Program-made: the position numbers and the translations under genes
The notes under the pieces: model-generated
Told to the model about the DNA's origin: nothing
Databases searched by the model: none
Seen by the model: the letters and a program-made list of their open reading frames with translations, nothing else
Source of the DNA: a virus
Direction: 5' to 3' (one strand)
Virus record (IMG/VR): IMGVR_UViG_3300012202_000039
Location: 15,974-79,973 of that record
Length of the DNA stretch: 64,000 nucleotides
Shown here: positions 1,047 to 46,527 of the stretch, piece by piece
How positions within the stretch are numbered: the stretch's first letter is position 1
Layout: every line of letters starts with the position of its first letter

Positions 1047-4000
1047 ATGCATATTTTGATTAAAGGATTTGGTCGAACTGGTGTAGTTTCTTCTAAAGTC
1101 GGCGGTAGGTCTTTTACAGAAACCGCGACGGATGGAGGAAATCTTAGTGGATTTGGTATCGGAGGTAATTACGGTTTAGGTGCATCAGCTATTATTCCTA
1201 ACACCGATCTAGAGTTACTAGACGGTCTAATCTCGTTTAGAAGTGACCAAATTGTTCGGAAAGTATACCGGGATATCTATTGGCACGACGTTATTGCTGG
1301 TGGTGCCGTCGATATTCAATCTACTATCCCTTTCTCAGATTTTAGCCTATCTGGTATCAACGATCCTAAAGTTCTCGAAGTCTACATGCAAGCTATTGAA
1401 AATATGTCTATCTTGACGTTGTTACCTTCAGTTAGGATCGACCAACTCGTCTTAGGCACATTTATCGGGGTAACTAACTTCGATAGAGAGATTAATAATT
1501 ATACTTCATTAACTCCGATTAACATAGATATGACGCAAATAACCCCGGCTCCATTGTTTGATATGGATCCCATTATTGATTTGCGTTTTGCTAAGGATAC
1601 TCAGCGGTACCTGAGGAATACTAAAGATCATAGGTACCAGCGTATCCGGAATAAAATGCCCCAATGGATGATCGATGGTATTTCCAAAGGACGCGTATTA
1701 TTAGATTCAGCTAACGTCATCTACTTACCTCGGAAGACTTTATCCACAAATAATCTCGGTACTTCCTATTTCCGTAGGATTTTACCGATACATATTATGG
1801 AAAAAGCTATATTACGAGGAAGCATACAACAGGCATATAGAAGGCAACGAGCTATCGGATGGGCGCGAGTCGGCGACGATGAATGGGAGCCTACAAACAA
1901 CGAACTAAGTTCTATTTTGAGTATGCTACAATGTTTGACGGGTGACACACTTATATCTATAGAAAATAAACTTACACGTTTAGATAAGATTTGTTCGCGT
2001 AAAGGTATGCAAAAAGATGAAGGTAAGAAAATAAATCTAAAGATAAAAGGCAAAGATGGTAAAATAGTTACTGCTAATAAGTGGTGGTATCGCGGTTACG
2101 ATTATGTTAATAACATTAAGACTGAGCACGGATACTCATTAAAAGCCACAGATACTCATCGTATACTGGTACTTAATGACAAATTAAAATTAATCTGGAA
2201 ATATACTAAAGATTTAAAGATCGGTGACAAACTTTGTTTAGATAGTAACATATCTAAAAGTGAAAATAATACCCAATTAAAGGTAGATATTAATCTACCT
2301 ACATTAGTTACTCGCCCGCAAAGTGGCGGTATGACAGCTAAAGCTATAGATATTCCTAAAGAAATGTACCCAAAATTAGCTTATTTATTAGGATTATTAG
2401 TTAGTGAGGGGCATGTCCATAAGCATTATGTAGCTATAACTAATAGTGCAGAAATTTTGCTCGAAGAAGCTATAGATTGTTTTAAAGAAATCTTCTATCT
2501 TAATCCTAGAATTGAGTGGATGGATAGAATAGGACAAGAAATAGTTATAAATGGTGTGCATACGGGTACTACTAGAAGTCTATCTGGTGTAGTACGTGCC
2601 CATAGCATATATGCCTCTCATATATTACAGAAGCTAGGCGTTAGCTCCAGTGAAACTCTTAGATTAAATGGTGATAAATATCCAGCAAATTATAAAGAAA
2701 TTCCTTGGTCTATTCTTCAAGCTGATGATGAATCTAAATATGCCTTTATTGCAGCATATTTAGATGGTGATGGCGGTCTCGAAGTACATGATACCAATTC
2801 GGGTAAAAATATACTTCTTATTATACGTAGTTTTAGTAAGAAATTACTAAAACAAATGCAGATAATGTTATTAGATCTAGGTTATCATTCTCATATATCC
2901 TATGATCTTAATAGGTTAACTATAAATCGAAATAATGCGGCTAAATTATATGCTAAAATATCAAAGTATCTCAAGCACCCAGATAGAATTATTAAAGATT
3001 GTTCTGGTCAGGCTAACGATATGGGTGAAGGTATTCCCGTAGCCCCTATTCGGAAGTTATTTCAATCTAGATTCATCCGCTCAGAATATAGAAAACACTT
3101 TTTCTTAAATGATGAAGGTAAAGAAATCAGTATTAAACATTATGGAGTATTTTTAGCTAAAACTTTAAGTCATAATACTCTTCGTACTGAAGCATATAAT
3201 AGAGATGAATATAAAAATATATTAGATGCTTTAAAAATTATTAGTAAGAAATTTTATAATACAGTTGTAGATTTACTAGGCGTTGGATATAGGTATGAAT
3301 CTATTACCTCTATTACTAAACTAGCTAAAAAGCAACATTTATATGATTTAACTATTGATAAAAAATCAGAGTCGGCTTTTGTCGCTAATGGTATAGTTGT
3401 TCACAATTCTGCTGATATGGACCCTATCGGCGCTTTTCTCGTAACTAGAAATGGTATTGATTATCAAGATATACGAGAAGGTGGACAGTTTTGGTCCTTC
3501 AATGATGTCTTCGATACCTTTTCTAACGCTAAAATGCGCGGGCTTGGAATTTCAGAGGGATTATTATCCCAAGAAAATACGTATTCAACACTCGAAGCAT
3601 CCATAAGTATGTTCATGGATCAAATAAAAAGTGATCGAGAACAGACAACGAGAGAAATGTTCACTAACCGTATATTCGCAAATATCGCTATTACTAACGA
3701 TTTTAAACGTAAAAATCCACGGATGGAAGTACCTAACGACGCTGAACAATACCCAACTTTAAGTTCTATGACGACTAAAGGTAGTCCTAGGGGAGTACAC
3801 CGCACTGAAGATGGCCGTTACTTCGCTGTTTGTAGTTCAGCTAGTGCTAGATCGCAACTAAGTGAATATCAGATACCCAGTGTTCATTGGCACAAACAGC
3901 TCGAACCTAAAGGTGATCGGGATTACGTTGATTTACTATCTACTCTAGAAGAAAAAGGTGTACCTGTTCCTCTGCGGGTGTACGCCGCATCCGTGGGTGT

Positions 4001-7219: not shown

Positions 7220-7984
7220 ATGAATAACCGTCCTTTTCATATCTATTCTGATTGTCTCGGCTCACTAAAACATGTAGAAGCCTTTGATTTACTAGATGAA
7301 AAACGTTCGGATAAGCTGGAGTTATTTAAGATTCAAGCTGCCGCTACGGATATGACTAAAGATATTAAAGAAACTATTGTAACTGCACCTAAGATTCTCC
7401 CCTTCGCTGCGGAGAAATACAATATTTCACCTAATATTAAAGATTATATTCTCTGTTGCGTAGTAGTTTTACCTTCAGATCTACCCAATAAAAATGGTAT
7501 TGCTTTTTCTCATGCTGAGCTTAGTTCGTTCGTTGTGGATGCTGGATCACTATGTTATGATACGTTTAGATATCGTCCGATTCACCTCGAACATGCCAAT
7601 AAGGACCCTAGCATAGCTAAAGGCATAATTTTAAGCTCTAGTTACAAAAGAATGACAGGATTTAAAGGTAATTTGTGGAAAGTTATCTGTCTCTGTGCGG
7701 TTGACCGTAATCGCGATAAAGTTTTAGCCGATCGTGTTCTTAATGAAAAAGATACCGGTTTTTCCTTAGGTAGTCTATGTGCCGATTACCGTTGTTCTAT
7801 TACTGGTAACCTTTTTAGTTCAGGACAAGCTGAGAATTATACTAAGTTAGGTAAACCTTCTTTCCAAGTTGTGGGGAATAATTTAGCTTTCTTAAATGCC
7901 ATAGATTCCTTAATGTTTGAAGTTAGTGTAGTAGCTTCTGAGGCTTATTCTTCTGCTCGAACACCATATAAGATGACCTTCTAG
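7220..7984 (+). CDS. prohead (capsid maturation) protease
   Basis: NKNG.AF...EL, PIHLEHAN...AKGII, FSLGS...YRCSITG and FEVSVV motifs typical of phage prohead serine proteases; lies between portal and scaffold/MCP. Confidence 0.75.
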   Translation: MNNRPFHIYSDCLGSLKHVEAFDLLDEKRSDKLELFKIQAAATDMTKDIKETIVTAPKILPFAAEKYNISPNIKDYILCCVVVLPSDLPNKNGIAFSHAELSSFVVDAGSLCYDTFRYRPIHLEHANKDPSIAKGIILSSSYKRMTGFKGNLWKVICLCAVDRNRDKVLADRVLNEKDTGFSLGSLCADYRCSITGNLFSSGQAENYTKLGKPSFQVVGNNLAFLNAIDSLMFEVSVVASEAYSSARTPYKMTF

Positions 7985-8100: not shown

Positions 8101-8850
8101 ATGCAACTAACTAAAGAGGTAATCTTAGCTAGGATAGATATTTCTTACCACGATAAGGCTGAAGCTATATATAAAATAATTAAACAAGAAGTGCTTAAGG
8201 GAAAGTTAATAAAACAAAGTAACACAGCTTTGAGTAAACATCTAGATTCTACAACTATTTATTTATTAAATTCTGAACGATTTAATGAACTATATAAGAA
8301 TACGACTATATCTTTCTCTACCTATAAAACTAGTTCATATTTTAACGAAAATAAGCACGCCTCTGGTTTTACGGATCAGAAAGGTAGTATAAAGCTGTTA
8401 TATACATTTAGAATTTATACTTCCAAATTTAAAAATGATCTCCATTTCTTAGTTCCACGGTTGAATAAGCAAGAAATTATATCTTTCTTTACTTATGATT
8501 TGTATAAAGATATATTTATTCATGAGTTAACGCACTACCTTCAGATACATAAACGTTTATATTTTGAATCTCCCTTTAAGAATGCTGATAATGATTACTT
8601 TAAACAAAGAATAGAACGAGAAGCATACTTGAATAGTTTTATTGGAGATTTAAAGAATATCATTATAAAAAATCCAGAAAAATATCTACAGTCATTAAAC
8701 GATTTTAAAAATTTAATAAAATATGAATTAAGAAATGGCGGTAATGCTAAAGATATATTAGATAACCTATCCAATACTACGAGAGAGCAATATTATATAG
8801 ATGTATACGAATATTTCAGGAAGAAATATAAGCAAGGACTAAATACATGA
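8101..8850 (+). CDS. HExxH zincin-like protein, paralog 2
   Basis: FIHELTHYLQ...EREAY; first 21 aa identical to 4892-5716. Confidence 0.65.
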   Translation: MQLTKEVILARIDISYHDKAEAIYKIIKQEVLKGKLIKQSNTALSKHLDSTTIYLLNSERFNELYKNTTISFSTYKTSSYFNENKHASGFTDQKGSIKLLYTFRIYTSKFKNDLHFLVPRLNKQEIISFFTYDLYKDIFIHELTHYLQIHKRLYFESPFKNADNDYFKQRIEREAYLNSFIGDLKNIIIKNPEKYLQSLNDFKNLIKYELRNGGNAKDILDNLSNTTREQYYIDVYEYFRKKYKQGLNT

Positions 8851-9020
8851 ATAAATTTTATCTCTACTCGCAAAGAGATTCGGTTCTAGAAGATATAGAA
8901 GAACAAATGCATAAACTTAAAACTGAACACCAGAGACAGACGGAAGATTATAAAACACAAATGGAAAGTTTACGTAAACGTAAAGAATCTCGTATGCAGG
9001 GTCTAGGTAAGAACAAATAG
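8847..9020 (+). CDS. small coiled-coil protein (57 aa, not in ORF track)
   Basis: ATGA overlap with the upstream stop; charged heptad pattern. Confidence 0.55.
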   Translation: MNKFYLYSQRDSVLEDIEEQMHKLKTEHQRQTEDYKTQMESLRKRKESRMQGLGKNK

Positions 9021-9023
9021 GCC

Positions 9024-9031
9024 CTGTAAAT
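9024..9031 (+). promoter_or_regulatory. putative phage promoter motif CTGTAAAT
   Basis: Same 8-mer in intergenic DNA at 22682 and 46520; followed here by a small hairpin (AGAATACCA..TGGTACTCT). Confidence 0.5.
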
Positions 9032-9090
9032 AGAACACAGAATACCACTAATGGTACTCTAGTTTTTAAATAAATTGAAGGTAAATAGTT

Positions 9091-9900
9091 ATGTCAGTTA
9101 ATATTGTTCAAAATAAGTTTCTTGAATATATCGTCAGCGAATGTCACGATCGTGGTAATTTAATCGAGATGAATATTCATCTCGTAAATAATGTACGTTT
9201 AGTTGGACATATTATTGGTTACGATGACGATTCCATCATTCTTAATGGTCGTGGTAAAACGCAGATTGTCTTCAAGAAGGCTATTTTGACTATTTGTCCT
9301 GGCGACAAGGGTGACGTAAACATGCTTAAGGCATGTTTACCTGATACGCTTAGTGAAGCTGCGCTTAATAGGTTAGTAGGTAATACTAGTACATATAGGC
9401 ACTACACTTCTTCAAATTTAGATAAAACTAGCCACCAACCTTATTACGGTGAGCCCCAGACAGATTTAAATCCAGTAAAAGAACCTATTGATATAATCAA
9501 ACAAGTTGAAGGTAAGGTCGGCGAGGGTAGTTGTAGTGGGATCGGCGGTGAGGTTAATAACCAGCTAATTCCTAGTTATGATGCTATCCTGAACTACCAT
9601 AAGAATAAAGGTAATTCTGTTTCAGAAGAAGATAAGGTCAGTGATAATGCCGAGGAATCTCGGGCTCCTACTGAGAGAGAAGAATTTAATAAGTATCTAA
9701 AAGAGAAGTATTCTAGTTCAGATGATAAGGGACGTAAAGAACTTTTAGAACAATTAAAGCTAAAAAATAACATTGGCGCATGTTTTAGTGATCCTGATGA
9801 TGATATGTATTATCCTAGTAATATGAGTAATCTTCTTTCAGAAGAAGAGAAGATTACTCAAGAAATGCACGATAATGGTACTGACAGTGTTGCAGTTTAA
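9091..9900 (+). CDS. hfq: Hfq/Sm-like RNA chaperone domain with long acidic C-terminal extension
   Basis: NIVQNKFL...IHLVNNVRLVGHIIGYDDDSIIL...TQIVFKKAILTICP matches the Hfq pattern LQDxFL..IxLVNGxKLxGxIxxFD...SQxVYKHAISTxxP. Confidence 0.8.
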   Translation: MSVNIVQNKFLEYIVSECHDRGNLIEMNIHLVNNVRLVGHIIGYDDDSIILNGRGKTQIVFKKAILTICPGDKGDVNMLKACLPDTLSEAALNRLVGNTSTYRHYTSSNLDKTSHQPYYGEPQTDLNPVKEPIDIIKQVEGKVGEGSCSGIGGEVNNQLIPSYDAILNYHKNKGNSVSEEDKVSDNAEESRAPTEREEFNKYLKEKYSSSDDKGRKELLEQLKLKNNIGACFSDPDDDMYYPSNMSNLLSEEEKITQEMHDNGTDSVAV

Positions 9901-9926
9901 TTAAGTTCAAAGAGGAAATAATTAAG

Positions 9927-11054
9927 ATGTCTACGATTGATTTCCCCGAGTTAGATATTGAAACCTATATCTCTGCTGACCCTATCGACGTAGTACCAGA
10001 TAATAGCAAGGGTTCACAGAAGATTGCTATTCTAGGCTTAGGTCAAGCCGGCGGACGTATAGCAGAAGCTTTCCAAGACATTGGGTATAATAAAACTATT
10101 TATGTTAATACTACCGCACAAGATATTAATAATATTGTCTATAAATGTATTATTGGTATTACTGGTCGACCAGGCGGTGCTGGTAAGAATATGGCTATTG
10201 CTAGGGAAGCCTTTAATCAATGTGAATCAACTATTACTAACTTGATGACTAAAGTGTACGGTAAAGTTGATCATATTCTAGTATGTGCTGCGTTAGGCGG
10301 AGGTACTGGCTGCGGTTCCGTGGTTTCTGCTTTAGAATTAGCTAAGAAGTATATGCGTTATATCGGACACGCCGATGCAGATAAGCGAGTTGGGGCGGTT
10401 ATTACTATCCCAACTAATGGTGAACTTAACCCGCAAGTATTAAGTAATACTCTAGAAACCGCCGAAGAATTATCTAGGTTAGCAGATAATCAAGAAATCA
10501 GCCCTTTGATTATGGTGGATAACGAGAAGCTTAAGCTTCTCTATCAGACTAAAATTCCTATTGCGAAGTACCACACAACTATTAATAATCTTATTGTCCA
10601 GCTTATTGATAGTTTTAATACTATTTCTAACCAAGCTAGTGAATACATCACCTTCGACGCCACAGATTATGAAACCATCCTACAATGTGGCGGTCATATG
10701 ATTTCCGGGGTAACTCGGGTAGATAATTGGTTAGATAAAGATCTAGTAGTTAAAGCATTTCGAGATAATTTGATGGGTGCATTATTATCCTCTGATTTCG
10801 ACCTAACTACGGCTACTCACGGCGGTGTAGTAGTAATGGTTGACGAGGAGTTGATTAATACTGATGTAAATCTTCAAGCTTTTATTGAAGCTGGATTTGA
10901 TTCGATTAATCTCCTATGTCCTAAGGCCACTATTCATCGTGGTTTATACAAATGTAAGCCGACTAAGTTGAGTAAAGTTCGCGTATATACCACACTAGCT
11001 GGATTAAAGACACCTACTCGTAAATATGATAAGTTATCTGCTTTATTGAACTAA
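9927..11054 (+). CDS. tubulin/FtsZ superfamily GTPase
   Basis: GLGQAGGRIA, NTT..D, GGAGKN, signature GGGTGCG, DNE, T7-like FDATDY. Confidence 0.9.
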   Translation: MSTIDFPELDIETYISADPIDVVPDNSKGSQKIAILGLGQAGGRIAEAFQDIGYNKTIYVNTTAQDINNIVYKCIIGITGRPGGAGKNMAIAREAFNQCESTITNLMTKVYGKVDHILVCAALGGGTGCGSVVSALELAKKYMRYIGHADADKRVGAVITIPTNGELNPQVLSNTLETAEELSRLADNQEISPLIMVDNEKLKLLYQTKIPIAKYHTTINNLIVQLIDSFNTISNQASEYITFDATDYETILQCGGHMISGVTRVDNWLDKDLVVKAFRDNLMGALLSSDFDLTTATHGGVVVMVDEELINTDVNLQAFIEAGFDSINLLCPKATIHRGLYKCKPTKLSKVRVYTTLAGLKTPTRKYDKLSALLN

Positions 11055-11067
11055 AGGAGTAACACAA

Positions 11068-11280
11068 ATGAACGAACCTAAGAAAATTTTACATATTACA
11101 GTTGGTTCTGATGATTGGTATTCTACTAATGTAGAATTGGAGCAAGTTTATAATTTATTTAAAAATGGTATATTAAATGCGCATAATTGTGTTACACAAA
11201 GAGGTATTGAAGTTAAGGCTATAGATAATATTGAAGATATAGATGAAATTGTCATCAGGCGTAAGATGAAATTACCTTAA
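11068..11280 (+). CDS. small protein homologous to the portal segment flanking the intein site
   Basis: ILHITVGSDDWYSTNVEL...VTQRGI vs portal IGWARVGDDEWEPTNNEL...VTRNGI; AAGGAG RBS. Confidence 0.7.
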   Translation: MNEPKKILHITVGSDDWYSTNVELEQVYNLFKNGILNAHNCVTQRGIEVKAIDNIEDIDEIVIRRKMKLP

Positions 11281-11312
11281 ATAATACACCAAAACTAGCC
11301 AATTCTATATGG

Positions 11313-11347
11313 AATAGCCCTAAGGTATCACCTTAGGGCTATTTTTT
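11313..11347 (+). terminator. intrinsic terminator
   Basis: AATAGCCCTAAGGT-atc-ACCTTAGGGCTATT followed by a T-run. Confidence 0.85.
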
Positions 11348-11367
11348 CGTTTAAAGTTATCTAATTT

Positions 11368-11394
11368 ATTAGATACTATTCAATAGTATCTAAT
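11368..11394. promoter_or_regulatory. 13-bp inverted repeat directly after TAATTT (5' UTR hairpin or operator)
   Basis: ATTAGATACTATT-c-AATAGTATCTAAT. Confidence 0.5.
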
Positions 11395-11415
11395 TCTCTC
11401 CTAAAGGAATATAAA

Positions 11416-12336
11416 ATGTACCTAGGCCACGTAGTCAAAGCTGAAGCTATCCCTCAGTGGTTTTCTGATATGAATAAAGAAGGTCAACAAGGCTACTTAA
11501 AAGATCACCCTAACTCCAAGATTGCTCATACAGTTAAGAATAATCCGAAAGCTTTGAAATCTGGTAGTAGGGGTGGAACTAATAAACCAGCTCCACACGA
11601 TCCTAAGAAGACTCTAGATATTATCAAAAAGAATCCTAGGGTTCAGAAGGCGCTTAAACCAAATTCTCCAGAACGACAGGAATTAGCTGGTAATTTAAAG
11701 AAATATAAAAAATTAATGGATAAGACCTATAAAGGATTAGATTTAGAAACTAGAGATGCACTTAGGGCTACTTCTGCTAAACTAAAAGCTGGTAAGAAAT
11801 TAGATGAAAAAGATATGCAAGGTATAGTAAATTTAACAAATGAATATACTAAGAAAAATAAATACGGATTAGGTAAGGCGGCAGCCAATGCAGTTGGTGC
11901 GGGTATTGGTGTTGCTGCTATGAACGTGGGCGGAGCGTTAACATTATATACTGGTGGTTTGGCAGGAACATTAGGAATTGGGGCAGCAGGTACAGCTGCC
12001 GCTATTGCCGCTCCTCTTGGTATTGGGCTGTTAGCAGTTGGCGCAGGTATATATGGGTATAATGCATTTAAGGGTATTAGAGGAAATTTTAGAAATTTAC
12101 GAGGCAAAACTAAAATTAACGACAGAGAAACCCAAGAATTACTTAAACACAAGAATGAATTCAGTACTATTACAGCTTACTTCTACACTAAAGCAGAAGA
12201 CAATACTCCCGATGATCCTATTCAAACTATTCTAGATCACATGTCTAAGGCGGTGCAGACTACTAATCTCTCCCCAGAGATGTGGGCACAGATGTTAACT
12301 CCTATTAAAAGTGAAGCTAAAGAAAAAGAGGAATAG
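11416..12336 (+). CDS. glycine-zipper family paralog A (putative internal head/ejection protein)
   Basis: WFSDMNKEGQQGYLKDHPNSK motif, NSPERQ motif, central Gly/Ala hydrophobic segment. Confidence 0.6.
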   Translation: MYLGHVVKAEAIPQWFSDMNKEGQQGYLKDHPNSKIAHTVKNNPKALKSGSRGGTNKPAPHDPKKTLDIIKKNPRVQKALKPNSPERQELAGNLKKYKKLMDKTYKGLDLETRDALRATSAKLKAGKKLDEKDMQGIVNLTNEYTKKNKYGLGKAAANAVGAGIGVAAMNVGGALTLYTGGLAGTLGIGAAGTAAAIAAPLGIGLLAVGAGIYGYNAFKGIRGNFRNLRGKTKINDRETQELLKHKNEFSTITAYFYTKAEDNTPDDPIQTILDHMSKAVQTTNLSPEMWAQMLTPIKSEAKEKEE

Positions 12337-12338
12337 AG

Positions 12339-13187
12339 ATGTATTTTCCCTCTGAAAAAGAATATTTTAAAATAATGTCTAGTGTTGGCAAGCTAGACAT
12401 TAATATAGATTTAAATGAAATATTATCTTCAGTAATACCTCTACATAATATCAGGTCTTATTACGAAGGTGCTAAAGCTTTACCTAAGTTCGACAAATCT
12501 AGTCTCAATAAGATATCACAGTCTGGAACTAAGTCTATAAATAAAGCTAAAACTACATTAAAATCTAACGGCGTTAATATAACTTTACTTCAAAGCTTAT
12601 GCTATAAGTATGGTAAAACCTATCGTGCCGGCTTTGATCCACAGAAATTCGCTCAACATATCAAAGAAATTCACACTAAAGTATCAGTTAAAGAGTTACC
12701 TAAAACTATACTATTATTACTAGTCATGCTTATAGCCTCGTTATTATTTCAAATGATATTATTCTCAATTATAGTAACCGGTTTATCCGCTGTCGGTATA
12801 TCTATAGCTGGAGGCTTTATATTTACAATAGTTAACATCATTTACTTAGTTCTAGGGGCGCCTATATTTGAAGAAACTGCCAAAAAATACGCAAATGAAC
12901 ATGGATTTGGAAATACTTATGTAACATTATTTACTTACGCCGAATTTGCTAAATACGTAATTACTTTTGCACATGCCGGCGTTGCCGTCCTAACTATTGT
13001 AGCTTATAGAATATTAGCAGCAGTTCTTCATTTTTATACACATTATTTACAAAAAGAAAATGTAGATTTTACGGGTAAGAAAAGTGATATTAAGAATGCA
13101 GGTTACAAAACAGGACTAGCAGTTCACGGTCTTTGGAATTTTTGTTTAGGCGGCTTACCCATGGTACTACAACTTATTCTTAAATAA
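12339..13187 (+). CDS. PrsW/CPBP-like intramembrane protease
   Basis: Multiple TM helices with EETAK, FTYAE, LHF and HGLWN motifs (EExxK, FxxxE, H, HxxxN). Confidence 0.7.
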   Translation: MYFPSEKEYFKIMSSVGKLDINIDLNEILSSVIPLHNIRSYYEGAKALPKFDKSSLNKISQSGTKSINKAKTTLKSNGVNITLLQSLCYKYGKTYRAGFDPQKFAQHIKEIHTKVSVKELPKTILLLLVMLIASLLFQMILFSIIVTGLSAVGISIAGGFIFTIVNIIYLVLGAPIFEETAKKYANEHGFGNTYVTLFTYAEFAKYVITFAHAGVAVLTIVAYRILAAVLHFYTHYLQKENVDFTGKKSDIKNAGYKTGLAVHGLWNFCLGGLPMVLQLILK

Positions 13188-13204
13188 TATAGGAAGCTAG
13201 AGAA

Positions 13205-13921
13205 ATGCCAGATAAAAAAGCTTTACAAAAAATTATCGATGATCCCCGAACTAAAAAGGCTATGCAATCTAACTCTCCTGAAAGACAAGCTTTAGCTAAG
13301 ACAATTCTCAAATATAGAAAACCCGTACAGAAAGTTTATAAATCTCTCCTACCAGGAGAGAAATTACTTATGGATGCTATAGCTAATAAGTTACGTAAGA
13401 ATGAGAAACTAGATAAGAATGATATTAAGGATTTATCTAGTTTCACTCAAAGATATACACAGGAGATCGATCCCGCTTCCTATAAAAACATGTATAAGTA
13501 TGAACGAAATAGTAGTTTACAAGGAGGATTATTAGCATTCGCTTTAATACCTTGGGCTGCTAAAGGTTTAGCAACTCAATTTAGTGGTCCTCTTGTTGGT
13601 CTCGCGGCAGGTGTTGTTTCTTTCCCACCGGCCGTAATTTTTGGTACAGCAGCTTTAGCTGGTTTATCTTTAGGTATGGAAATATATAGTGCATATAAAG
13701 GTATTAAGAATTGGATTATGCGTATAAGAGGTACGGATAAAATTGATACAGATCAACTAAAAAGTGTATTAAAACATCAACCTTTAAGTCATGTACATGC
13801 TTACTATATATCAGCGGATAACGATAATTCTGAAGCAACCGTCGATACAATTCTAAAAGCCACGGCTAAAGCAATTTTAACTGTTAAAATTAATCCAGAG
13901 GATCTTATGAAAGCTGCGTAA
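13205..13921 (+). CDS. glycine-zipper family paralog B
   Basis: DDPRTKKAMQSNSPERQALA; hydrophobic core; C-terminus similar to 11416 ORF. Confidence 0.6.
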   Translation: MPDKKALQKIIDDPRTKKAMQSNSPERQALAKTILKYRKPVQKVYKSLLPGEKLLMDAIANKLRKNEKLDKNDIKDLSSFTQRYTQEIDPASYKNMYKYERNSSLQGGLLAFALIPWAAKGLATQFSGPLVGLAAGVVSFPPAVIFGTAALAGLSLGMEIYSAYKGIKNWIMRIRGTDKIDTDQLKSVLKHQPLSHVHAYYISADNDNSEATVDTILKATAKAILTVKINPEDLMKAA

Positions 13922-13922
13922 T

Positions 13923-14747
13923 ATGTTAATATTTGCTACTGAAGATAAAAATTCTTGGTTCTACGATATGAATAAAGATCAACAGGATTTGTATATCACT
14001 AGGCATCCTAACTCCAAATTCGCTAAACAAGCGTCACCAGAACAAGGTGACGCTGATGCTTTTTCTACACATATTTTAGACGATAAAAAAGTACAGAAGG
14101 CTACACAGCCTCACTCCAAACAGCGTAAACAAGCCGCTAATAGTGTTACTAACCAAGGGAAATTAATCGAGGATTATTATAGTAAACTGCCTAAGACTGA
14201 TAAGCTTAAGTTAGATAGTTTCACTAAAAAATTAAGTAATAAAGAAAAGATATCTAAAGTAGATTTTAAACCAGTTAAAACATTCTTTAATAAATATCAA
14301 AAGTGGGTTAAAGGTTTAGATAGCGAAAAAATTGGTAAACTAGCTATTAAGGGTGCGGCCGTTTTTGCTATTGGCTCTTTCGTGGCAGCTAATATACCTC
14401 TAGCTGCTTTAGCTGGAGTGGTATTTTTATCTAGTAAGTTTAAAGGACCGGAACCTAAATTTTTGGGTCCAGTTAGGCAGCCTAAAAAAGAAGCAGAAAC
14501 TGAAGAATCTGCACCTAAGTATACTAAATCCAAGCCTAATATAATCGATACTGAATACGAAGAAGTTCCTAACGATGAGTATCTTGATCATAAACAACCT
14601 AAGCAATTGCAACATATCACTAGCTACTTTAATATAGCAGCAGTAGATAATACTCCACAAATTCTAGTTAAGCATTTAGCTGATGCACTTCAGTCACATA
14701 ACTTTACCAAAGAACAGTGGCAATATTTATTACGGCACCAATCATGA
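13923..14747 (+). CDS. glycine-zipper family paralog C
   Basis: WFYDMNKDQQDLYITRHPNSK; KKVQKATQPHSKQR; hydrophobic core; shared C-terminal DNTP..IL..HL motif. Confidence 0.6.
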   Translation: MLIFATEDKNSWFYDMNKDQQDLYITRHPNSKFAKQASPEQGDADAFSTHILDDKKVQKATQPHSKQRKQAANSVTNQGKLIEDYYSKLPKTDKLKLDSFTKKLSNKEKISKVDFKPVKTFFNKYQKWVKGLDSEKIGKLAIKGAAVFAIGSFVAANIPLAALAGVVFLSSKFKGPEPKFLGPVRQPKKEAETEESAPKYTKSKPNIIDTEYEEVPNDEYLDHKQPKQLQHITSYFNIAAVDNTPQILVKHLADALQSHNFTKEQWQYLLRHQS

Positions 14748-16369
14748 TTAATCTCGCTGCTTTCTACGAAGAACAAGCTAACGCTATTACTATCGATGAA
14801 AAGCTGATAGAAGAATTAATTCAATACATCTCAGATGTAGCTGATATATTAGAATTTGGTCCGTTAAAAGTAGAAGAATACAAGTTACTTCATGTTAGAA
14901 ATTTTACTAATCAAATATTAAAAAATCACCCTGTTCGTAATAAATATACCTACCTTTACCGTTTTCACTACGGTAAAGCTTTTGTACATATTAACCCCAC
15001 TACTAATATCAAAGCAGTTAAATTTATAGTAACTGCAACCGAACAACAGATAGAAAAGCCCAAACCACATAAAATTATTGCCTATACTAGTATAATTGAT
15101 AATCTACCTCTAAGATGGGATCCTAAAACTAAGAAGAATATTAAAACTCAGTTAAAAACTATCTACACCGAAGAAGAACTTCGGGTGATAATAAACCGAT
15201 TTAAACAAAAGAACCCCGGTTCAGATGATATGGATATCGCTAAATATTTGATGTTATTATTAAAACATCCGCCTAAGGGTCATGAATCTATCTTAGATGG
15301 TTTATCACTTAATGATGCTGAAAAACAAGTCATTGTTCAGAGTTTATCTCCTCACGAAATTAACGAAGTAATCGCAATTTGGCGAGAAAGTTTTCAAGGT
15401 AAAAATCATCCGATTCAATTCTTATTTAAAAATGCTATATTACGTAACAAACGTCGTGTACCCGTATCTAAACAAATATTAGATAATAAAACTAAACTTA
15501 TTAATTCTTTAGCTATTGATAAAGAAGATAAATATACTTTAGATAATAAGTTCTCTTATGTAGAAATTATCGATATAGTGGAAGCTTACAAAAAACGTAC
15601 TGGTAATGAACAACCTACTATCTTAAATCTTAGTGATCTTTTTCAAATAGTATTAGATGATTACGTAGCTATGAATATTCGCTTTATTCTAACTAAAGTG
15701 GGTACGGCGGATTGGCCGAAAATCCATGAAGAACTTGATCACCAATCTTATTTAAATCCAGGTAAAGATATTAATTTTACCGATGATGAGCGTCTACCGC
15801 CCCATCTACTCAAAGAAGAACCAGATTTTTATAAAGAAGAAAAAACTCTTATTGAAACCCCAAGAGATCTTTATAAAGGTTTTATTAATTTTATTACATC
15901 GGGTAGACTATATATTAATGCCCGAGCCTACGAGACCTGGTATTTATCCGAAGGCATAGCAAATTACTTCGCTTTCGAGGTATACAAAGCCCACCCGTTT
16001 AAGAATGAATTTCAGCAGCCGTTTACATTATTACCTTCTATCTTAACCTACGATAATCTAAAAGCTCCTATTTTAATATCTCCCTGGTATATAGCCGCTA
16101 TATTAGAGACCTTCCCTGAAGCAGCTATTAAGCGAGTAACGTCTAACACTAAATATCTCTTAGATATCAAGCGTGTCTCGCATCGTTTACAACGAGTTTT
16201 CGGAGAAAAGGGGGCTTATGCTGTAATTTTACATCATGAAGGTACTAATAAACATGTTCATCCTATTTCTGCGGTAGAAGCTAAACCGCAGTCCGCTAAT
16301 ATTACTATTCCAACTGGTGTACCTTCACGTCAAGTAATAGAATATTTAGATAATTATATGAGAGTATAA
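14744..16369 (+). CDS. hypothetical protein (possible virion head protein)
   Basis: Long ORF; start moved to the ATG overlapping the upstream TGA. Confidence 0.6.
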   Translation: MINLAAFYEEQANAITIDEKLIEELIQYISDVADILEFGPLKVEEYKLLHVRNFTNQILKNHPVRNKYTYLYRFHYGKAFVHINPTTNIKAVKFIVTATEQQIEKPKPHKIIAYTSIIDNLPLRWDPKTKKNIKTQLKTIYTEEELRVIINRFKQKNPGSDDMDIAKYLMLLLKHPPKGHESILDGLSLNDAEKQVIVQSLSPHEINEVIAIWRESFQGKNHPIQFLFKNAILRNKRRVPVSKQILDNKTKLINSLAIDKEDKYTLDNKFSYVEIIDIVEAYKKRTGNEQPTILNLSDLFQIVLDDYVAMNIRFILTKVGTADWPKIHEELDHQSYLNPGKDINFTDDERLPPHLLKEEPDFYKEEKTLIETPRDLYKGFINFITSGRLYINARAYETWYLSEGIANYFAFEVYKAHPFKNEFQQPFTLLPSILTYDNLKAPILISPWYIAAILETFPEAAIKRVTSNTKYLLDIKRVSHRLQRVFGEKGAYAVILHHEGTNKHVHPISAVEAKPQSANITIPTGVPSRQVIEYLDNYMRV

Positions 16370-16370
16370 A

Positions 16371-16667
16371 ATGAAAACTATAAACGAACTTATATTATCT
16401 TATACTATTCCTATCGATCAATACTGCGACGAAATCGATAAATATTGTGAAACTGCTAATATTAAAATTGTAAAACCGTGCACCTTTAACGACTCAGTTT
16501 ATTCTATTATTATAGCTAATATTTTACATTATGATAAATTTCGTGAACTTCTGACTAATATAGAGTTACTCTGTCGTTCACATGGTCGTTATGATATGTA
16601 TATTATCTCTAGTTCTTTAGGTTTAAAAATCACAATTAAAGTCTATGATCAATATTTAAAGGCTTAA
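16371..16667 (+). CDS. hypothetical protein
   Basis: 98-aa ORF tightly packed in the operon. Confidence 0.55.
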   Translation: MKTINELILSYTIPIDQYCDEIDKYCETANIKIVKPCTFNDSVYSIIIANILHYDKFRELLTNIELLCRSHGRYDMYIISSSLGLKITIKVYDQYLKA

Positions 16668-16670
16668 ATT

Positions 16671-17495
16671 ATGCCAGCACAGGGACCACATGTATCTACT
16701 ACTCGCTTCCTAAATAAAAAAGCTACACATAGTGATGATAATAAATCTGAAGAAAACATTCGTCATCTAATTAAAATATATCGAGATATTAAAACTATTA
16801 CTGGTAATTGCCAACTTAAGGATGATAAGATTCTCATCTTTGAAGAGAATTTTAGCCAATTTGTTATGAAGTTAAAAGAAGATGGATGGAAGTTATCTAA
16901 CCTTACTTTTAGTACGCACACTAAAACTATATATATGAAGAAGGATGATATCGAGATAGGATTAGATAACCGAATTAATCAAAATCAAACTAGTCCGATA
17001 AAGTTATATATCTATAATACTATAGATGAAGATTTAGATAATAAGCCCACGGGTATGTTACCGATGGATATGATAATGAATTCTCCAGCATATAAAAAAA
17101 TGCACGAGGAAGAATCCGCTTTCGGTGATAAACTTAAGAAAGGATTTAATCTAACCAATATAATTAAATCTTTATTAAAGTATTTAGTATCTAAGCAGGA
17201 AAGAGATAGTGCTAAAAAACTCTTAAAATTATCCAAAGAAATTGAAGATTCTATCGATGAACACGAGGAACGTATACGTAGCGAAATGAAGTATTTAGCT
17301 CAAACTATTAACCCTCTTATTAACGACATTAAGAAACTCAAGGTTAGTATAGATGAATTAGATGAATCCGGGGGTAAACAGAAATTAAAGCAAAACTTAG
17401 ATAACTATTTAAATCATTTAGTAGATTACGTCCGTAATCCTCTGATTAGCTGTGCAGAAATAACTAAGTCTATCTCTGAAAGACTAGAGTCATGA
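16671..17495 (+). CDS. hypothetical protein with C-terminal coiled coil
   Basis: 274-aa ORF. Confidence 0.55.
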   Translation: MPAQGPHVSTTRFLNKKATHSDDNKSEENIRHLIKIYRDIKTITGNCQLKDDKILIFEENFSQFVMKLKEDGWKLSNLTFSTHTKTIYMKKDDIEIGLDNRINQNQTSPIKLYIYNTIDEDLDNKPTGMLPMDMIMNSPAYKKMHEEESAFGDKLKKGFNLTNIIKSLLKYLVSKQERDSAKKLLKLSKEIEDSIDEHEERIRSEMKYLAQTINPLINDIKKLKVSIDELDESGGKQKLKQNLDNYLNHLVDYVRNPLISCAEITKSISERLES

Positions 17496-18490
17496 ATATC
17501 CCACGTATTGTAGGTAGATTATGTAACTACGTAGACAATAAATTTTTCCCTCACCATATATACTCTTCTACTAAAATCACTTTAAAGCCTCTACCGGTTA
17601 TGTGGTTTGAGAATGAGAAAGGTGATAAAATTTCTTTTATGTATGAAGGTAAGCCTCCTACAGAAGAAATGCCAGATATAAAAGACTACCCTTATGCGCA
17701 TATGCGCATGAATGCTATTATTAGAGATGATATTTTTAAACGAGATAAAACTGGAGATGATGGTGATAATATTATTGGTAGTAGGCAGCGAGGGTTTAAT
17801 GGAGATTTAGCCCTTAGTCTGGCTAATAATTCTAACTTAAAATTATCTGAAGCTATTGCGTTTTGTGCTACATGCTGCGAAAGATGTATGAATTTATTAG
17901 CGAATAAATTAGGTTTATCTTGGGGATATACGCCAGATAGTGAAGATGCTAAGAAAGTTAATACTTCTTGTGAGGTTTGCCCGCAAGTAGCAGAGTTATT
18001 TCCTAAAGATAGTATCAAGTATAGCATAGAAAAAGCTTCTACTTTAGATATAGATACTCAGCTAGACTTTAAAAGATATTATCATACTGCAAATATAGAT
18101 TGGTCATATTATGCAGAAGATGAAATAGCTAGAATAGTAGCTAAATTCTTACCTTATGATATTAAGTTAACTTCCAATTTAAAAGATAGTATACATACTT
18201 TTATAAATAAGTGTCAGAAAGAGAATTGGTTCGAAGTACAAGCTAAAGAATCTTATCGGTATCTTATTAACTCAGCTATACTTAATCTTATCTCTAGTTT
18301 AAAATCTAATTCTAAACAGCCCAAGATATTATTGATTAAGGCTAAGATATATCCTCTGTATAGTAATGAAGCCAATCTATTTATTCCTAAAGAAATGCCC
18401 TTATCTCGCTACCAACACGATATATTAGCTACTATTCTTAATAAAAATGTAAAAGAAATAACTCCAAAAATGCTAAAATATATCAATTAA
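17492..18490 (+). CDS. hypothetical protein with Cys cluster (possible Zn site)
   Basis: CATCCERC...SCEVC; ATGA overlap. Confidence 0.55.
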   Translation: MNIPRIVGRLCNYVDNKFFPHHIYSSTKITLKPLPVMWFENEKGDKISFMYEGKPPTEEMPDIKDYPYAHMRMNAIIRDDIFKRDKTGDDGDNIIGSRQRGFNGDLALSLANNSNLKLSEAIAFCATCCERCMNLLANKLGLSWGYTPDSEDAKKVNTSCEVCPQVAELFPKDSIKYSIEKASTLDIDTQLDFKRYYHTANIDWSYYAEDEIARIVAKFLPYDIKLTSNLKDSIHTFINKCQKENWFEVQAKESYRYLINSAILNLISSLKSNSKQPKILLIKAKIYPLYSNEANLFIPKEMPLSRYQHDILATILNKNVKEITPKMLKYIN

Positions 18491-18658: not shown

Positions 18659-20683
18659 ATGCAAAACGCTCGTCTGGCTAAGATCCTTAGTACTGCCAAA
18701 CTCCCGCTGATCGTAGCCCACAAGAAGGGTGAGATCCGAGCGACTAATCTACGTCGCTTTCGCGATACGGAGGCTAAGGTACGCCTGGTGACGAATGATA
18801 TGAAGGCCCCGATGTCTATTCTTTCGGGTTCTCCATTAAAGCAAGATCTTAGGGCTACTGTAGTTATTAGCGCTTCTGATATTGCTAAGCTCGTACCTTT
18901 TGCTTATTCAAAGAAGACTAATATTGTATATCGCACTACTCCTGAAATAGCACGAGCATTCTCTAGAATTGAAAATGCTCGTGTGCATTGCGCAGTTTCT
19001 TCTGCGGTTATGTCAGTTAATATTAATAAGACTGTATTAGCCGCAGCTATGGAGACTGATGTTAGTTTAAAACATAATACGAAATTCCCAGGTGAGATGG
19101 GCGAAGATGATAATCCCGTTACCACTATGGACACATCTGAACTTGACTCAGATGATTTAGATGCGCTTAATGGCGACGCCATGGATGATAATAGGGTTCC
19201 ATTAGATGAAGATGAGCGTGTTGAAGATGATTACGAAGCTCCAGATGGTGGTTATCGTCAGGTAGAGAAAGACGATATGGATAATCACGGGCTACCCAAG
19301 GTGGCTGCTTCAGTTAAGAAAAATAGAATTGCCGCTAAAAAGCGTCGTGTAAAGGCCGCAGAAATGAAGGGTTTGGACGATAATACTACTCCTTCGCGCG
19401 GCGGCGGTTACGATTATGAAGGTGGCGATGATAATGAAACAAAGATGAGTGATGATGACGATATGGACATGGATGATGACATGTCCGATGATGACGATAT
19501 GGACATGGATGACGACATGTCTGATGAAAAAGATATGGATGATGATAATGGTGACGAAGATGCGTCAGAAGCTGACAGTGAATCCGGGGTTGATGATCAA
19601 GAATCCCGAGATATGTTAGCTGATGGCGATACAACAATGAATGACGGCGATATGCGCGCCCGTGATGGCGATAATGATGAAACTATGATGAGCGATGACG
19701 ACGACATGAATATGTCGGAAAATGAAGATGATGAAAAAGATATGGATGATGATGGTGAAGAAGATGTTTCCGAAGATGATAGTGAATTAATGAATGATGA
19801 TGGCGCACCGAATAATGTACAGTCGCCAAATAATATGCGTCGAGCCCCTGATGGTAATACAGAAATGGCATCTGTGTACCGGGCTAATCTATTAGAAGAA
19901 TTATCTGCTTTGAAGAATAAGCGTGTTGATATTGTCGAAGCTGGTGGTGATAAATCAGTATATTATCTTTTCTATAATCATAATCCTGTTGCAGTTATGA
20001 ATCCAATTCATGCATCAGATATGGTTAAGCAATTAGCTGCTTTTCCAGTTAAATTTAAGCATGCTTTCTTTGCAGCTACTCGGGATAAGGGTATTACTGC
20101 AAGTGTAGCTAAAGATTTTGGTTTAAAACCGCTGGTTATTAAACTTACCGCCGCTACTCTTATCAATAAAGCTATTGCTAAGAAAGTAAAGGAAATTAAG
20201 GCTAATTACCACCGTCGTGGTAATAATATTCGTAAGCGTTTACAGCACAGCATTAATATTGCTGCTGTTGGTATTAATAAGAATTTCTGGAAGGCTACAA
20301 CTAACCCTCTGCGGGAAAATCTTTGCCAGGAATTAGCCGCTAATAATGTTCGTAATCCTGAACGTATTATCGATAAGGTTTTCGAACATCATGGCGAAGA
20401 GTATCTTCGTACTATTATGACACGAGCTTCTATTATCGCTAAAAAGCCGCCTTCTTTCCGTGAAGAACTCGCTCATACAGTTGAAGATGCAAATTATCAG
20501 CCAATTAAGCGTAGCGAAGGTGATGTGCTTGTTGAACGTTTAGTTCATGGTAATCAGATAGTTAGTGATGATGAAGATTTCAGCGTAGAATCTTCAGATA
20601 ATAGTGATTATGATTATCGTAATCCTAATGTCGATGAGGTTACTGCCCTGCGTAATCAGCTAAAGCTTGGTGGTCGGCGTTAA
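18659..20683 (+). CDS. capsid scaffolding/prohead core protein (probable)
   Basis: Very acidic D/M-rich central region, helical C-terminus, upstream of decoration and MCP genes. Confidence 0.6.
   Translation: MQNARLAKILSTAKLPLIVAHKKGEIRATNLRRFRDTEAKVRLVTNDMKAPMSILSGSPLKQDLRATVVISASDIAKLVPFAYSKKTNIVYRTTPEIARAFSRIENARVHCAVSSAVMSVNINKTVLAAAMETDVSLKHNTKFPGEMGEDDNPVTTMDTSELDSDDLDALNGDAMDDNRVPLDEDERVEDDYEAPDGGYRQVEKDDMDNHGLPKVAASVKKNRIAAKKRRVKAAEMKGLDDNTTPSRGGGYDYEGGDDNETKMSDDDDMDMDDDMSDDDDMDMDDDMSDEKDMDDDNGDEDASEADSESGVDDQESRDMLADGDTTMNDGDMRARDGDNDETMMSDDDDMNMSENEDDEKDMDDDGEEDVSEDDSELMNDDGAPNNVQSPNNMRRAPDGNTEMASVYRANLLEELSALKNKRVDIVEAGGDKSVYYLFYNHNPVAVMNPIHASDMVKQLAAFPVKFKHAFFAATRDKGITASVAKDFGLKPLVIKLTAATLINKAIAKKVKEIKANYHRRGNNIRKRLQHSINIAAVGINKNFWKATTNPLRENLCQELAANNVRNPERIIDKVFEHHGEEYLRTIMTRASIIAKKPPSFREELAHTVEDANYQPIKRSEGDVLVERLVHGNQIVSDDEDFSVESSDNSDYDYRNPNVDEVTALRNQLKLGGRR
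19451..19522 (+). repeat. 36-bp tandem duplication (DDDDMDMDDDMS x2)
   Basis: GATGATGACGATATGGACATGGATGAYGACATGTCY twice. Confidence 0.9.
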
Positions 20684-21482: not shown

Positions 21483-22580
21483 ATGAAAGCAACTGTTGCT
21501 CGTCGCCCTGCTGTCCCAGCTTTACATGCACGTTTTAATGGTAGTAATGAACGTATCGTCGGTCGAGACAATCATATTAATGCGGGTTCTAATAAGGAAC
21601 TTCTAACCCGCATTAAAGATCTGGCGGAAATGGTCACCGCTGGTTCTATTGATATGTCGCCCTATAATAAGAATAATCAAGTTACTGCGGCTGACGTTCA
21701 AACTCGTAATCAAAAATTATCAGCAGCATTTTATACCCAGAATAATTCCCGTCCGTGGGCAAATATGGGTGCCGCAGTTAGTGCCGATCTTTCGGAAGCC
21801 GCTGACCGTGAAGGCTTTATGCGTCGTCTCTTACTTAAGGTTGACGTAGCCAACGGAACTATTCCACGTATCCGCGTTAAGCAGAAGAATATTATCGCCT
21901 TAATCGCTTCTTCGGGGTTAGATAATCGGCCGGTATACTTACGTGATAAGTATATTACGCCTCCAGAATTTTATATTAAGCATAATATTCGCGTGGAAGA
22001 ACGTGAAATTGTGCAGGGGTCTGGGGATATTCTTGAAGATAAGTTCTTCGAGACCCAGGAAGGTATTATGGTGCAGGAAGATCGTAAGTTTATCTCTCTG
22101 CTAAATGATACTATTGGTATCGCTAATAGTAATCAGCTTTTAGCGGGTGGTTTATCTCCTGCTACCTTATCACAGATGCGCACACAGATTCTACAGTGGA
22201 ATCTGCCAGCATCTACTCTGTTAATTGCATCTGATGTGCTTAATGATATCGTTGGTCAGGGCGCAAATACTTTTGGCGGCTATTTTGATCCGGTGTCACA
22301 GTTTGAAATCGTTCAGACTGGTATGATTGGTACCTTAATGGGTATGCAGGTTATCACGGATTCGTACCGTGCCCCAACTCTTAAGGTTCTTAATGCCGGT
22401 GATATCTGGGTACTTTCTAATCCAGAAATGCTCGGTGCCTTTACGGATCGTGGTCCCGTGCAGTCACAGGAAGTTAATTCATACATGGAAGGTTCGCCCG
22501 CTCGTGGTTGGAACTTCTTTGAATTACTGAGTATGACTATAACTAACCAACGGTCAGCCGTCCACGGAAGTCGAGTTTAA
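21483..22580 (+). CDS. major capsid protein (HK97 fold, probable)
   Basis: 365 aa; REGFMRRLL, QEGIMVQEDR and TGMIGTLMGMQVITD segments; position after scaffold and decoration genes; biased codons. Confidence 0.8.
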   Translation: MKATVARRPAVPALHARFNGSNERIVGRDNHINAGSNKELLTRIKDLAEMVTAGSIDMSPYNKNNQVTAADVQTRNQKLSAAFYTQNNSRPWANMGAAVSADLSEAADREGFMRRLLLKVDVANGTIPRIRVKQKNIIALIASSGLDNRPVYLRDKYITPPEFYIKHNIRVEEREIVQGSGDILEDKFFETQEGIMVQEDRKFISLLNDTIGIANSNQLLAGGLSPATLSQMRTQILQWNLPASTLLIASDVLNDIVGQGANTFGGYFDPVSQFEIVQTGMIGTLMGMQVITDSYRAPTLKVLNAGDIWVLSNPEMLGAFTDRGPVQSQEVNSYMEGSPARGWNFFELLSMTITNQRSAVHGSRV

Positions 22581-22634: not shown

Positions 22635-22728
22635 CTAATTTAAGCGACATTATATTATATAACTCAAGATCTCTATTAAAACTGTAAATGAACAGAGATC
22701 TTGAGTTATAAATGTCGGCTTAAGTTAG
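22635..22728 (+). promoter_or_regulatory. long hairpin with CTGTAAAT in its loop, reaching the endonuclease RBS
   Basis: Perfect 17-bp arms 22658-22674 and 22694-22710, extended by 22635-22651 pairing with 22711-22728. Confidence 0.75.
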
Positions 22729-22739
22729 GAGAGTTTAAA

Positions 22740-46519: not shown

Positions 46520-46527
46520 CTGTAAAT
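46520..46527 (+). promoter_or_regulatory. putative promoter motif CTGTAAAT
   Basis: Third intergenic copy, immediately after a terminator and before a GGAG RBS. Confidence 0.5.

Follow-up and report, generated by a model that had tools for sequence, protein, structure and literature searches.

Why would a phage place genes for an Hfq-like protein, a tubulin and a small portal-like protein side by side among its head genes? This question is raised by a 64,000-nucleotide stretch of viral DNA (hereafter the window) that spans bases 15974-79973 of the 79,973-bp IMG/VR record IMGVR_UViG_3300012202_000039 (CheckV completeness 35%). The initial annotation of this window had described three co-oriented, closely spaced genes, and this arrangement holds. 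Three open reading frames (ORFs) on the plus strand, at 9091-9900 (gene A, 269 residues), 9927-11054 (gene B, 375 residues) and 11068-11280 (gene C, 70 residues), are separated by gaps of 26 and 13 nt, with Shine-Dalgarno sites in front of gene B (AAGAGGA) and gene C (AAGGAG, the consensus). Identical copies of the three proteins are encoded on a 185-kb contig as well. The answer we favor is that the trio forms a lineage-specific accessory cassette for late morphogenesis, in which the products of genes A and C would act at the portal vertex; having weighed the comparative evidence presented below, we would not bet on either side of this proposal. Its interest lies in the individual parts more than in a "system": a rare phage variant of Hfq, one representative of a large family of phage tubulins and the smallest portal-clip paralog come together in this phage only.

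Gene C encodes a free-standing homolog of the probable stem/clip segment of the portal protein, spanning the point at which an intein is inserted. The resident portal gene, which is the paralog of gene C in this genome (1047-4394, plus strand; phrog_16240, E 4.5e-116), carries an intein of ~492 residues (window positions 1932-3407, plus strand; Cys296-Asn787, +1 Ser) with matches to PF14890 and to LAGLIDADG (PF14528). Sequence and family scans with gene C alone (Pfam, PHROG) came back empty. A Smith-Waterman comparison of gene C with the spliced portal scored 58 (null 29.9 ± 4.2; 0 of 2000 shuffles reach 58), and the best score against any other protein of the window is 38. The claim of a portal-like small protein is borne out by profiles, which show gene C to be significantly similar to the part of the portal that surrounds the intein site. 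A hidden Markov model (HMM) made from the portals of 10 cultured phages, with the portal of the window left out, finds gene C among the ORFs of the window at E 3.6e-5 (next ORF: 0.38) and aligns its positions 289-344 with residues 5-58 of gene C. An independent HMM made from 25 IMG/VR portals finds gene C at E 1.9e-4. When an HMM of the 67-column clip segment was run against 35,753 ORFs (2.7 Mb), it returned 96 long ORFs, all portals, and a single small ORF, which is gene C (E 4e-4). In the alignment gene C reads KKILHITVGSDDW..T..ELEQVYNLF...VTQRGIEV where the portals read RGILHLTLGDGDQWEPT..DME..TDLF.NADADP.GAIIATR.GV, and I7, W17 and T43 are invariant in the portal-segment alignment that includes gene C. 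Missing from gene C is the family-invariant ADxDP loop, the intein site of the resident portal. The portal intein sits immediately before this loop of the stem/clip region.

By sequence, the portal family matched no solved structure. A portal without an intein, modeled with AlphaFold2 (AF2), resembles solved portals (Z 15-17.6), and the model places the segment (residues 279-335) between the wing (80-260) and a long bent helix (371-405). Stem and clip take up this place in T4 gp20, where the stem comprises residues 255-278 and 359-377, and the clip residues 279-358 (PMC4493910). In terms of this model, the segment copied by gene C is probably the portal clip region. Models of gene C itself (AF2, predicted local distance difference test score (pLDDT) 70; ESM, 0.55) suggest a small beta-grasp fold with doublecortin (DCX) domains as best neighbors at a sub-threshold E of 0.02. 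We set this resemblance aside as a generic beta-grasp likeness since the sequence evidence indicates a portal.

Clip-like domains outside portals are not confined to this locus. The segment alignment was searched across 38 genomes. In 8 of the 34 related jumbo phages, such a domain was found not only in the portal but also in a further ORF that is no portal (E 6.5e-10 to 2.8e-18). These paralogs are recovered by a portal-only HMM at E 1.4e-7 to 3.5e-15, and by phmmer with gene C at E 7.6e-9 to 2e-6 (in a small database). Five of the seven that were scanned fall into phrog_11049 (function unknown) and the other two match the portal family only; six of the seven also match the portal family phrog_16240 at ~289-340. 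A profile scan with gene C did not reach phrog_11049 at E <= 0.01. The paralogs measure 127-477 residues and extend beyond the domain at the N- or C-terminus; in databases and annotations they stand as hypothetical proteins or proteins of unknown function. On the minus strand they are L264:2911-3498 (Lu11_0130, hypothetical), L261:2933-3382, L266:2777-3157 and L265:2920-3558, and on the plus strand L259:2720-3556, L262:1888-3318 and L263:2752-3336. None of them has a tubulin or an Hfq gene beside it. The paralogous ORFs have stayed intact, and their recurrence in 8 of the 34 genomes argues for selection. Gene C is the minimal member of an unrecognized family of free-standing portal-clip-like proteins; we found no description of such a class, and the relationship to portals seems to have gone unremarked.

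Gene A was annotated as an Hfq, and this identity is confirmed: residues 21-72 match PF17209 (Hfq) with 43.1 bits, above the curated cut-off of 27 (46.1 bits when the record is searched in six frames). Among solved structures, Hfq from Aquifex aeolicus (5szd) comes closest, and the alignment to solved Hfqs is free of gaps. In E. coli Hfq the aromatic residue at position 42 (F/Y) lies on the proximal face and builds the uridine pocket together with the Sm2 motif [YF]KHAI. Gene A has Asp at the F/Y42 position and FKKAI in place of YKHAI (H57 to K) in this alignment, and it keeps the equivalent of K56. Outside the aligned region, where the N-terminus was compared by eye with that of E. coli Hfq, gene A appears to keep the equivalent of Q8 and to have lost the rim arginines R16, R17 and R19. 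The substitutions at F/Y42 and H57, read from the alignment, characterize gene A as a divergent Hfq/Sm-core protein in which the canonical uridine-pocket residues are changed. The Sm core (residues ~20-75) is followed by an acidic, hydrophilic orphan tail of ~190 residues (~81-269) with an isoelectric point (pI) of 4.6 and a grand average of hydropathy (GRAVY) of -0.97. An exhaustive HMMER search of 1.84 billion representative proteins found relatives for the Sm core only (30-47% identity, mostly tandem-Hfq proteins), and none for residues 81-269. The monomer model of gene A in the ESM Atlas is poor (pLDDT 0.52); its tail shows no features and no structural neighbors (template modeling (TM) score <= 0.28).

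Cultured phages seldom carry an Hfq gene: with canonical Hfq as query, 7 of 50,697 cultured-phage records were matched, several of which resemble bacterial or prophage contigs. Neither blastn with the locus nor tblastn with gene A found a match in cultured phages, and homolog searches with gene A and with gene C returned only the proteins themselves. A weak Hfq-like match in PaBG was dismissed as antisense to an annotated gene. Among the 34 genomes that share the portal family of the window, only one (G066, 190 kb) has an Hfq. This protein of 70 residues (L268:1489-1701, minus strand; G066 19030-19215) scores 52 bits on PF17209 and is 45% identical to the core of gene A; its motif is YKQAI, so that H57 is missing here too. 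Another host-type RNA-binding regulator in this supergroup is found in the cultured jumbo relative Xanthomonas phage PhiXhv-12, where L166:1363-1599 is annotated as the translational regulator CsrA.

Gene B belongs to the tubulin/FtsZ superfamily, as had been annotated, with 41.2 bits on PF00091 (Tubulin; cut-off 33). Searches for related loci with single-protein queries gave none, and alignment queries gave all loci. The family counts at least 152 loci in IMG/VR and at least 198 in JGI metagenomes. Gene B has 27 metagenomic homologs of 36-51% identity, the closest of which (45-51%) lie on ENA/Logan contigs. The motifs GxGQxGG (T1), GGGTGxG (T4), DxxD and the C-terminal GL..P..R are invariant or nearly so across the family, and in 26 members G37, G39, Q40, G42, G43, G125, G126, G128 and G130 do not vary. 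The invariant FDATD (D244, D247) resembles the FtsZ motif NxDxxD and, by this analogy, may be the T7 loop. Because these GTPase and C-terminal motifs are so well conserved, gene B very likely encodes an active, polymerizing GTPase. The last 25 residues have a pI of 10.2, and this basic C-terminal tail is conserved in the family.

The initial annotation had placed this tubulin in the context of PhuZ and the nucleus-forming jumbo phages. This analogy is not supported. The only cultured-phage relative of gene B is gp138 of Bacillus phage G (tblastn, 25.7% identity over 91% of the query), which hhalign matches to the gene B family profile with 99.2% probability (E 5.9e-20, 312 columns). The nearest solved structure is RepX/TubZ of pXO1 (4ei7, E 3.8e-24), followed by archaeal FtsZ/CetZ and other TubZs. 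The TubZ-like C-terminal domain PF22453 is matched weakly by gene B (17 bits, cut-off 26) and with 25.3 bits by its homolog P0002. In contrast, PhuZ of PhiKZ (gp039) aligns with the family profile over 91 N-terminal columns only (47.7% probability), and PhuZ was not among the 60 best PDB matches of the gene B profile. An insensitive single-sequence search with chimallin (PhiKZ gp054) found no match in the 35%-complete 80-kb record or in three complete tubulin-bearing relatives; the PhiKZ control was matched. The capsid and portal are also of the Lu11/PaBG/RHEph12 type. On these comparisons gene B is not a PhuZ but a member of a gp138-type family that is nearer to TubZ/RepX than to PhuZ.

The genes around the tubulin vary by clade. 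TerL or the portal lies 1-9 kb from the tubulin in 39 of 160 loci, yet this is so in only 5 of the 33 loci with at least 8 kb on both flanks, and in few clades, for which reason we rejected proximity to TerL or portal as a general rule. In one large clade (L006-L024, L039, L042; for example L011:6088-12052) the tubulin gene is followed by three small unknown genes, TerL (phrog_2) and the portal (phrog_213), with an SbcCD-like nuclease upstream. The closest JGI homologs among the matches listed (L084:6524-7543 and L087:765-1784; ~50% identity) lie ~2-3 kb downstream of a conserved ORF of 339 residues, and the other genes there are unrelated to the window.

The initial annotation had proposed a co-regulated unit and had named unlinked genes in related genomes as grounds for dropping it. 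By this criterion a conserved unit is refuted: none of the 160 tubulin loci has a homolog of Hfq or gene C near the tubulin, and none of the 34 genomes that share the portal family has this tubulin. In the 160 loci, which include homologs at 48-50% identity, phmmer with the nearby window proteins recovered only the tubulin; a custom Hfq HMM found nothing, and neither did lenient searches of the immediate neighbors. Of 50 records with a tubulin, none reached the Pfam cut-off for Hfq. The trio is unique to this lineage and was seen in no related genome.

The boundaries of the locus are only in part those first described. An intrinsic terminator at 11311-11345 (plus strand; perfect 14-nt arms, 3-nt loop, T run) is strong, with a folding energy of -23.9 kcal/mol (z -5.3) that was reached by 0 of 200 shuffles. 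The 5' boundary is weak. In the 70-nt gap before gene A, a weak hairpin followed by a UUUUU run (9036-9061, plus strand) is at chance level: 9021-9090 folds with -9.0 kcal/mol, a stability that 55 of 200 shuffles match (z -0.40). The CTGTAAAT motif in the same gap (9024-9031, plus strand) occurs three times in the window against 4.5 copies expected. All three copies (9024, 22682 and 46520) are intergenic and on the plus, coding strand; the one at 46520 comes after a terminator. The copy at 22682 (region 22640-22740) belongs to the loop of a hairpin, long and perfectly paired, that comes after the capsid gene and directly upstream of the gene for an HNH endonuclease (22701-24053). A signal or regulatory role for CTGTAAAT is suggestive only, and no boundary is defined by it. 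Nor is the description of the trio as self-contained supported, since no convincing terminator separates it from the upstream genes for the protease and for proteins of 249 and 57 residues, with which it is possibly cotranscribed. The G+C content of the trio (0.35-0.39) is near the range of the flanks (0.26-0.38), and therefore the trio is no compositional island. Sigma-70-like promoter sites numbered 49, compared with 49.3 expected from shuffles, and the counts of the T4-type sequences TATAAATA and TAAATAG had a strand or intergenic bias too weak for use. Iterated direct repeats or centromere-like repeats were absent from 8800-11500. Between the terminator and the gene at 11416 lies a perfect 13-bp palindrome, ATTAGATACTATT/AATAGTATCTAAT (11368-11394; fold z -3.7), which may be an operator or an RNA hairpin.

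The trio does stand in a head module. Shortly before the window begins, at record positions 13514-15634, there is TerL (phrog_17415, E 1e-139), followed by the portal gene and, still upstream of the trio and in the same orientation, by the gene for the head maturation protease (7220-7984, plus strand; phrog_18299, E 1.6e-52). Downstream lie the genes of a virion protein and of the major head protein (21483-22580), as well as those of an HNH endonuclease and of the tail sheath. The gene content shows that the locus belongs to an uncultured jumbo myovirus, a phage with a contractile tail. Its capsid and portal share 31-39% identity with their counterparts in RHEph12-type Rhizobium phages, ~227-kb Xanthomonas/Erwinia phages, Motura, BcepSauron and phiRSL1, a range that also takes in PaBG, Lu11 and Dickeya/Erwinia phages. 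By these identities the lineage is that of the "Lupandier" group and its neighbors (PMC7412058) and not Chimalliviridae, and the phage is only distantly related to phages of the Lu11/PaBG/RHEph12/phiRSL1 type. The block from 11416 through the tail tube is collinear with RHEph12, and the terminator at 11311-11345 therefore divides two conserved structural blocks. The trio is the 3' end of the portal-protease block.

What might the three proteins do there? Recent work on T4 offers a precedent. A hexamer of host Hfq lies beneath the gp14 stopper of the T4 neck, where it serves as a transient second genome gate and from where it leaves when the tail joins; it stabilizes gp13/gp14, prevents gp14 from mis-docking between the clip domains of the portal, and raises the yield of T4 ~2-fold (PMC12929587). 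The corresponding structures of the T4 portal-neck with E. coli Hfq (PDB 9lu5/9lu6) surfaced independently in our structure searches with gene A and with the portal model. The T4 clip is also the docking site of the terminase gp17 and of the adaptor gp13, and a free clip peptide of 24 residues binds gp17 and blocks packaging (PMC4493910). We think that the products of genes A and C most likely act at the portal vertex because a putative Hfq-like ring with degraded RNA-binding residues is encoded in the head block, one gene away from a free clip-like domain. By analogy to T4, gene A may give the phage a ring of its own for the junction of portal and neck, and may not be a classical RNA chaperone. 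Gene C may bind partners of the clip (the terminase or the adaptor arms) as a chaperone or as a competitor. Gene B would probably form GTP-dependent filaments that position DNA or assembly sites, which is a generic expectation for such a protein. The link to portal handling that the initial annotation had suggested is thereby plausible on new grounds, namely Hfq in the T4 neck (PMC12929587) and the copy of the probable portal docking region in gene C; the PhuZ-type capsid traffic that it had invoked is not supported. In a bolder version, the phage would have internalized what T4 borrows from its host: an Hfq ring, impaired in RNA binding, as dedicated gate or neck chaperone, a clip decoy that times terminase release or adaptor docking, and a cotranscribed tubulin that organizes the sites of head completion. 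The three would then make up a control module of a new kind for completing heads. We regard this complete scheme as a long shot.

Several observations weigh against a role at the portal vertex. No protein like gp13 or gp14 of the neck came to light in Pfam and PHROG scans, which covered the stretch of unknown genes at 11416-18490, and the interface of Hfq in T4 is described as specific to the T4 lineage (PMC12929587). The assignment of gene C to the clip rests on the order of secondary structure elements in a model with a pLDDT of 42-59 in this region. The Hfq gene of G066 lies 105 kb from its portal gene, and the Lu11-type clip-like paralogs stand amid non-structural genes. The trio is probably transcribed as one unit, to judge from spacing and terminator only. 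Finally, the adjacency of the three genes occurs in a single genome and may be accidental.

This last point leads to a first alternative, that the genes are chance neighbors: gene A would serve phage or host mRNAs in the usual way, as chaperone or regulator, gene B would manipulate the host cell or its division, and gene C would be a decaying duplicate of a portal fragment. Such an origin is consistent with the lack of any conserved pairing, with the mosaic genomes of jumbo phages (PMC13282480) and with the retention of the Q8 and K56 equivalents in gene A. It agrees less well with the absence from gene A of F42, H57 and the rim arginines, all used in canonical RNA binding, and with the placement of the genes in the head block, which suggests late expression. 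Gene C does not look like debris either, being intact, preceded by AAGGAG and part of a recurrent paralog family (E down to 3.5e-15 against the portal clip profile). We consider coincidence unlikely. A second alternative, that of the initial annotation, is a trafficking system that works in the manner of a PhuZ spindle: tubulin filaments would carry procapsids, portals or RNA, with the Hfq-like ring and the clip mimic as the adaptors that load them. The tight adjacency of the genes and their common terminator would fit, as would the complementary charges of the acidic gene A tail and the basic, conserved gene B tail, which are the only hint of direct coupling between A and B. The resemblance of the gene C models to beta-grasp/DCX microtubule-binding domains, at low confidence, would also fit, but this likeness is a generic one (E 0.02, pLDDT 55-70) and the sequence says that gene C is derived from a portal. 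Similarly, the 39 of 160 loci with TerL or portal 1-9 kb from the tubulin dwindle to 5 of 33 where the flanks reach at least 8 kb. Since, moreover, no conserved partner gene stands beside the tubulin in the 160 loci, the tubulin is not PhuZ and chimallin found no match in the incomplete record or in three complete relatives, this scenario appears rather improbable.

The kinship of gene B with TubZ raises the third alternative, that gene B partitions or centers the genome, for example during pseudolysogeny or as a plasmid-prophage, with gene A replacing TubR as the nucleic-acid adaptor. The C-terminal tail of TubZ is basic, and so is that of gene B; RepX/TubZ are its nearest solved relatives, and the weak match of gene B to the TubZ-like C-terminal domain rises to 25.3 bits in the homolog P0002. 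Hfq is also known to bind DNA (PMC12929587). However, no iterated centromere-like repeats flank the genes, the gene upstream of the tubulin codes for an Hfq-like protein and not for a winged-helix protein like TubR, and gene A is absent from all other tubulin loci. The location in a late structural block instead of a replication or maintenance region also speaks against segregation, and we rate its probability as rather low.

Should gene A indeed act at the portal vertex, as in the reading we favor, then the second genome gate made from Hfq would be more than an oddity of T4, and phages would encode a version of it themselves, through which the retention of packaged genomes could be addressed cleanly by genetics. 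The site where terminase and neck dock would have natural modulators in the free-standing portal-clip domains, which are present in at least nine jumbo-phage genomes and filed under "unknown function". The family of gene B adds a third group of phage tubulins, distinct from PhuZ and from classical TubZ; its more than 350 loci come almost only from uncultured phages. Together, the trio offers a way to test how filled phage heads are sealed.

How does this locus compare with known systems? For gene B the closest counterpart is gp138 of phage G, a "putative FtsZ-like" protein that matches the family profile over its full length, including the C-terminal GL..P..R. The two proteins share only ~26% identity, and gp138 is encoded among genes of nucleotide metabolism whereas gene B lies among late head genes. 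TubZ/RepX, the best solved match, has the GTP-binding motifs that are conserved in gene B, where the T7-type motif is a putative one; unlike in TubZRC, no TubR gene stands beside gene B and there are no centromere repeats. With PhuZ, gene B has in common that it is a tubulin encoded by a jumbo phage. It differs by its marginal, N-terminal match, by its basic tail where that of PhuZ is acidic, and by the Lu11/PaBG-like capsid and portal lineage of its phage. The portal-clip-like domain of gene C is the same as that of phrog_11049 proteins such as Lu11_0130, but these are longer and reside in non-structural neighborhoods without tubulin or Hfq, whereas gene C is the bare domain of 70 residues. 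The clip peptide of T4 gp20 (residues 288-311; PMC4493910) is, as gene C would be, a free clip fragment able to engage a clip partner; the peptide is an experimental reagent, whereas gene C is a natural gene. The nearest parallel to gene A is Hfq in the neck of T4. T4 uses the unmodified protein of its host, whereas gene A is phage-encoded, has diverged (F42 to D, H57 to K, loss of the rim arginines) and carries an acidic tail of 190 residues. What the two would share is a ring of the Hfq fold tied to head completion: gene A lies in the head block near a copy of the probable portal clip, the surface where the T4 neck docks.

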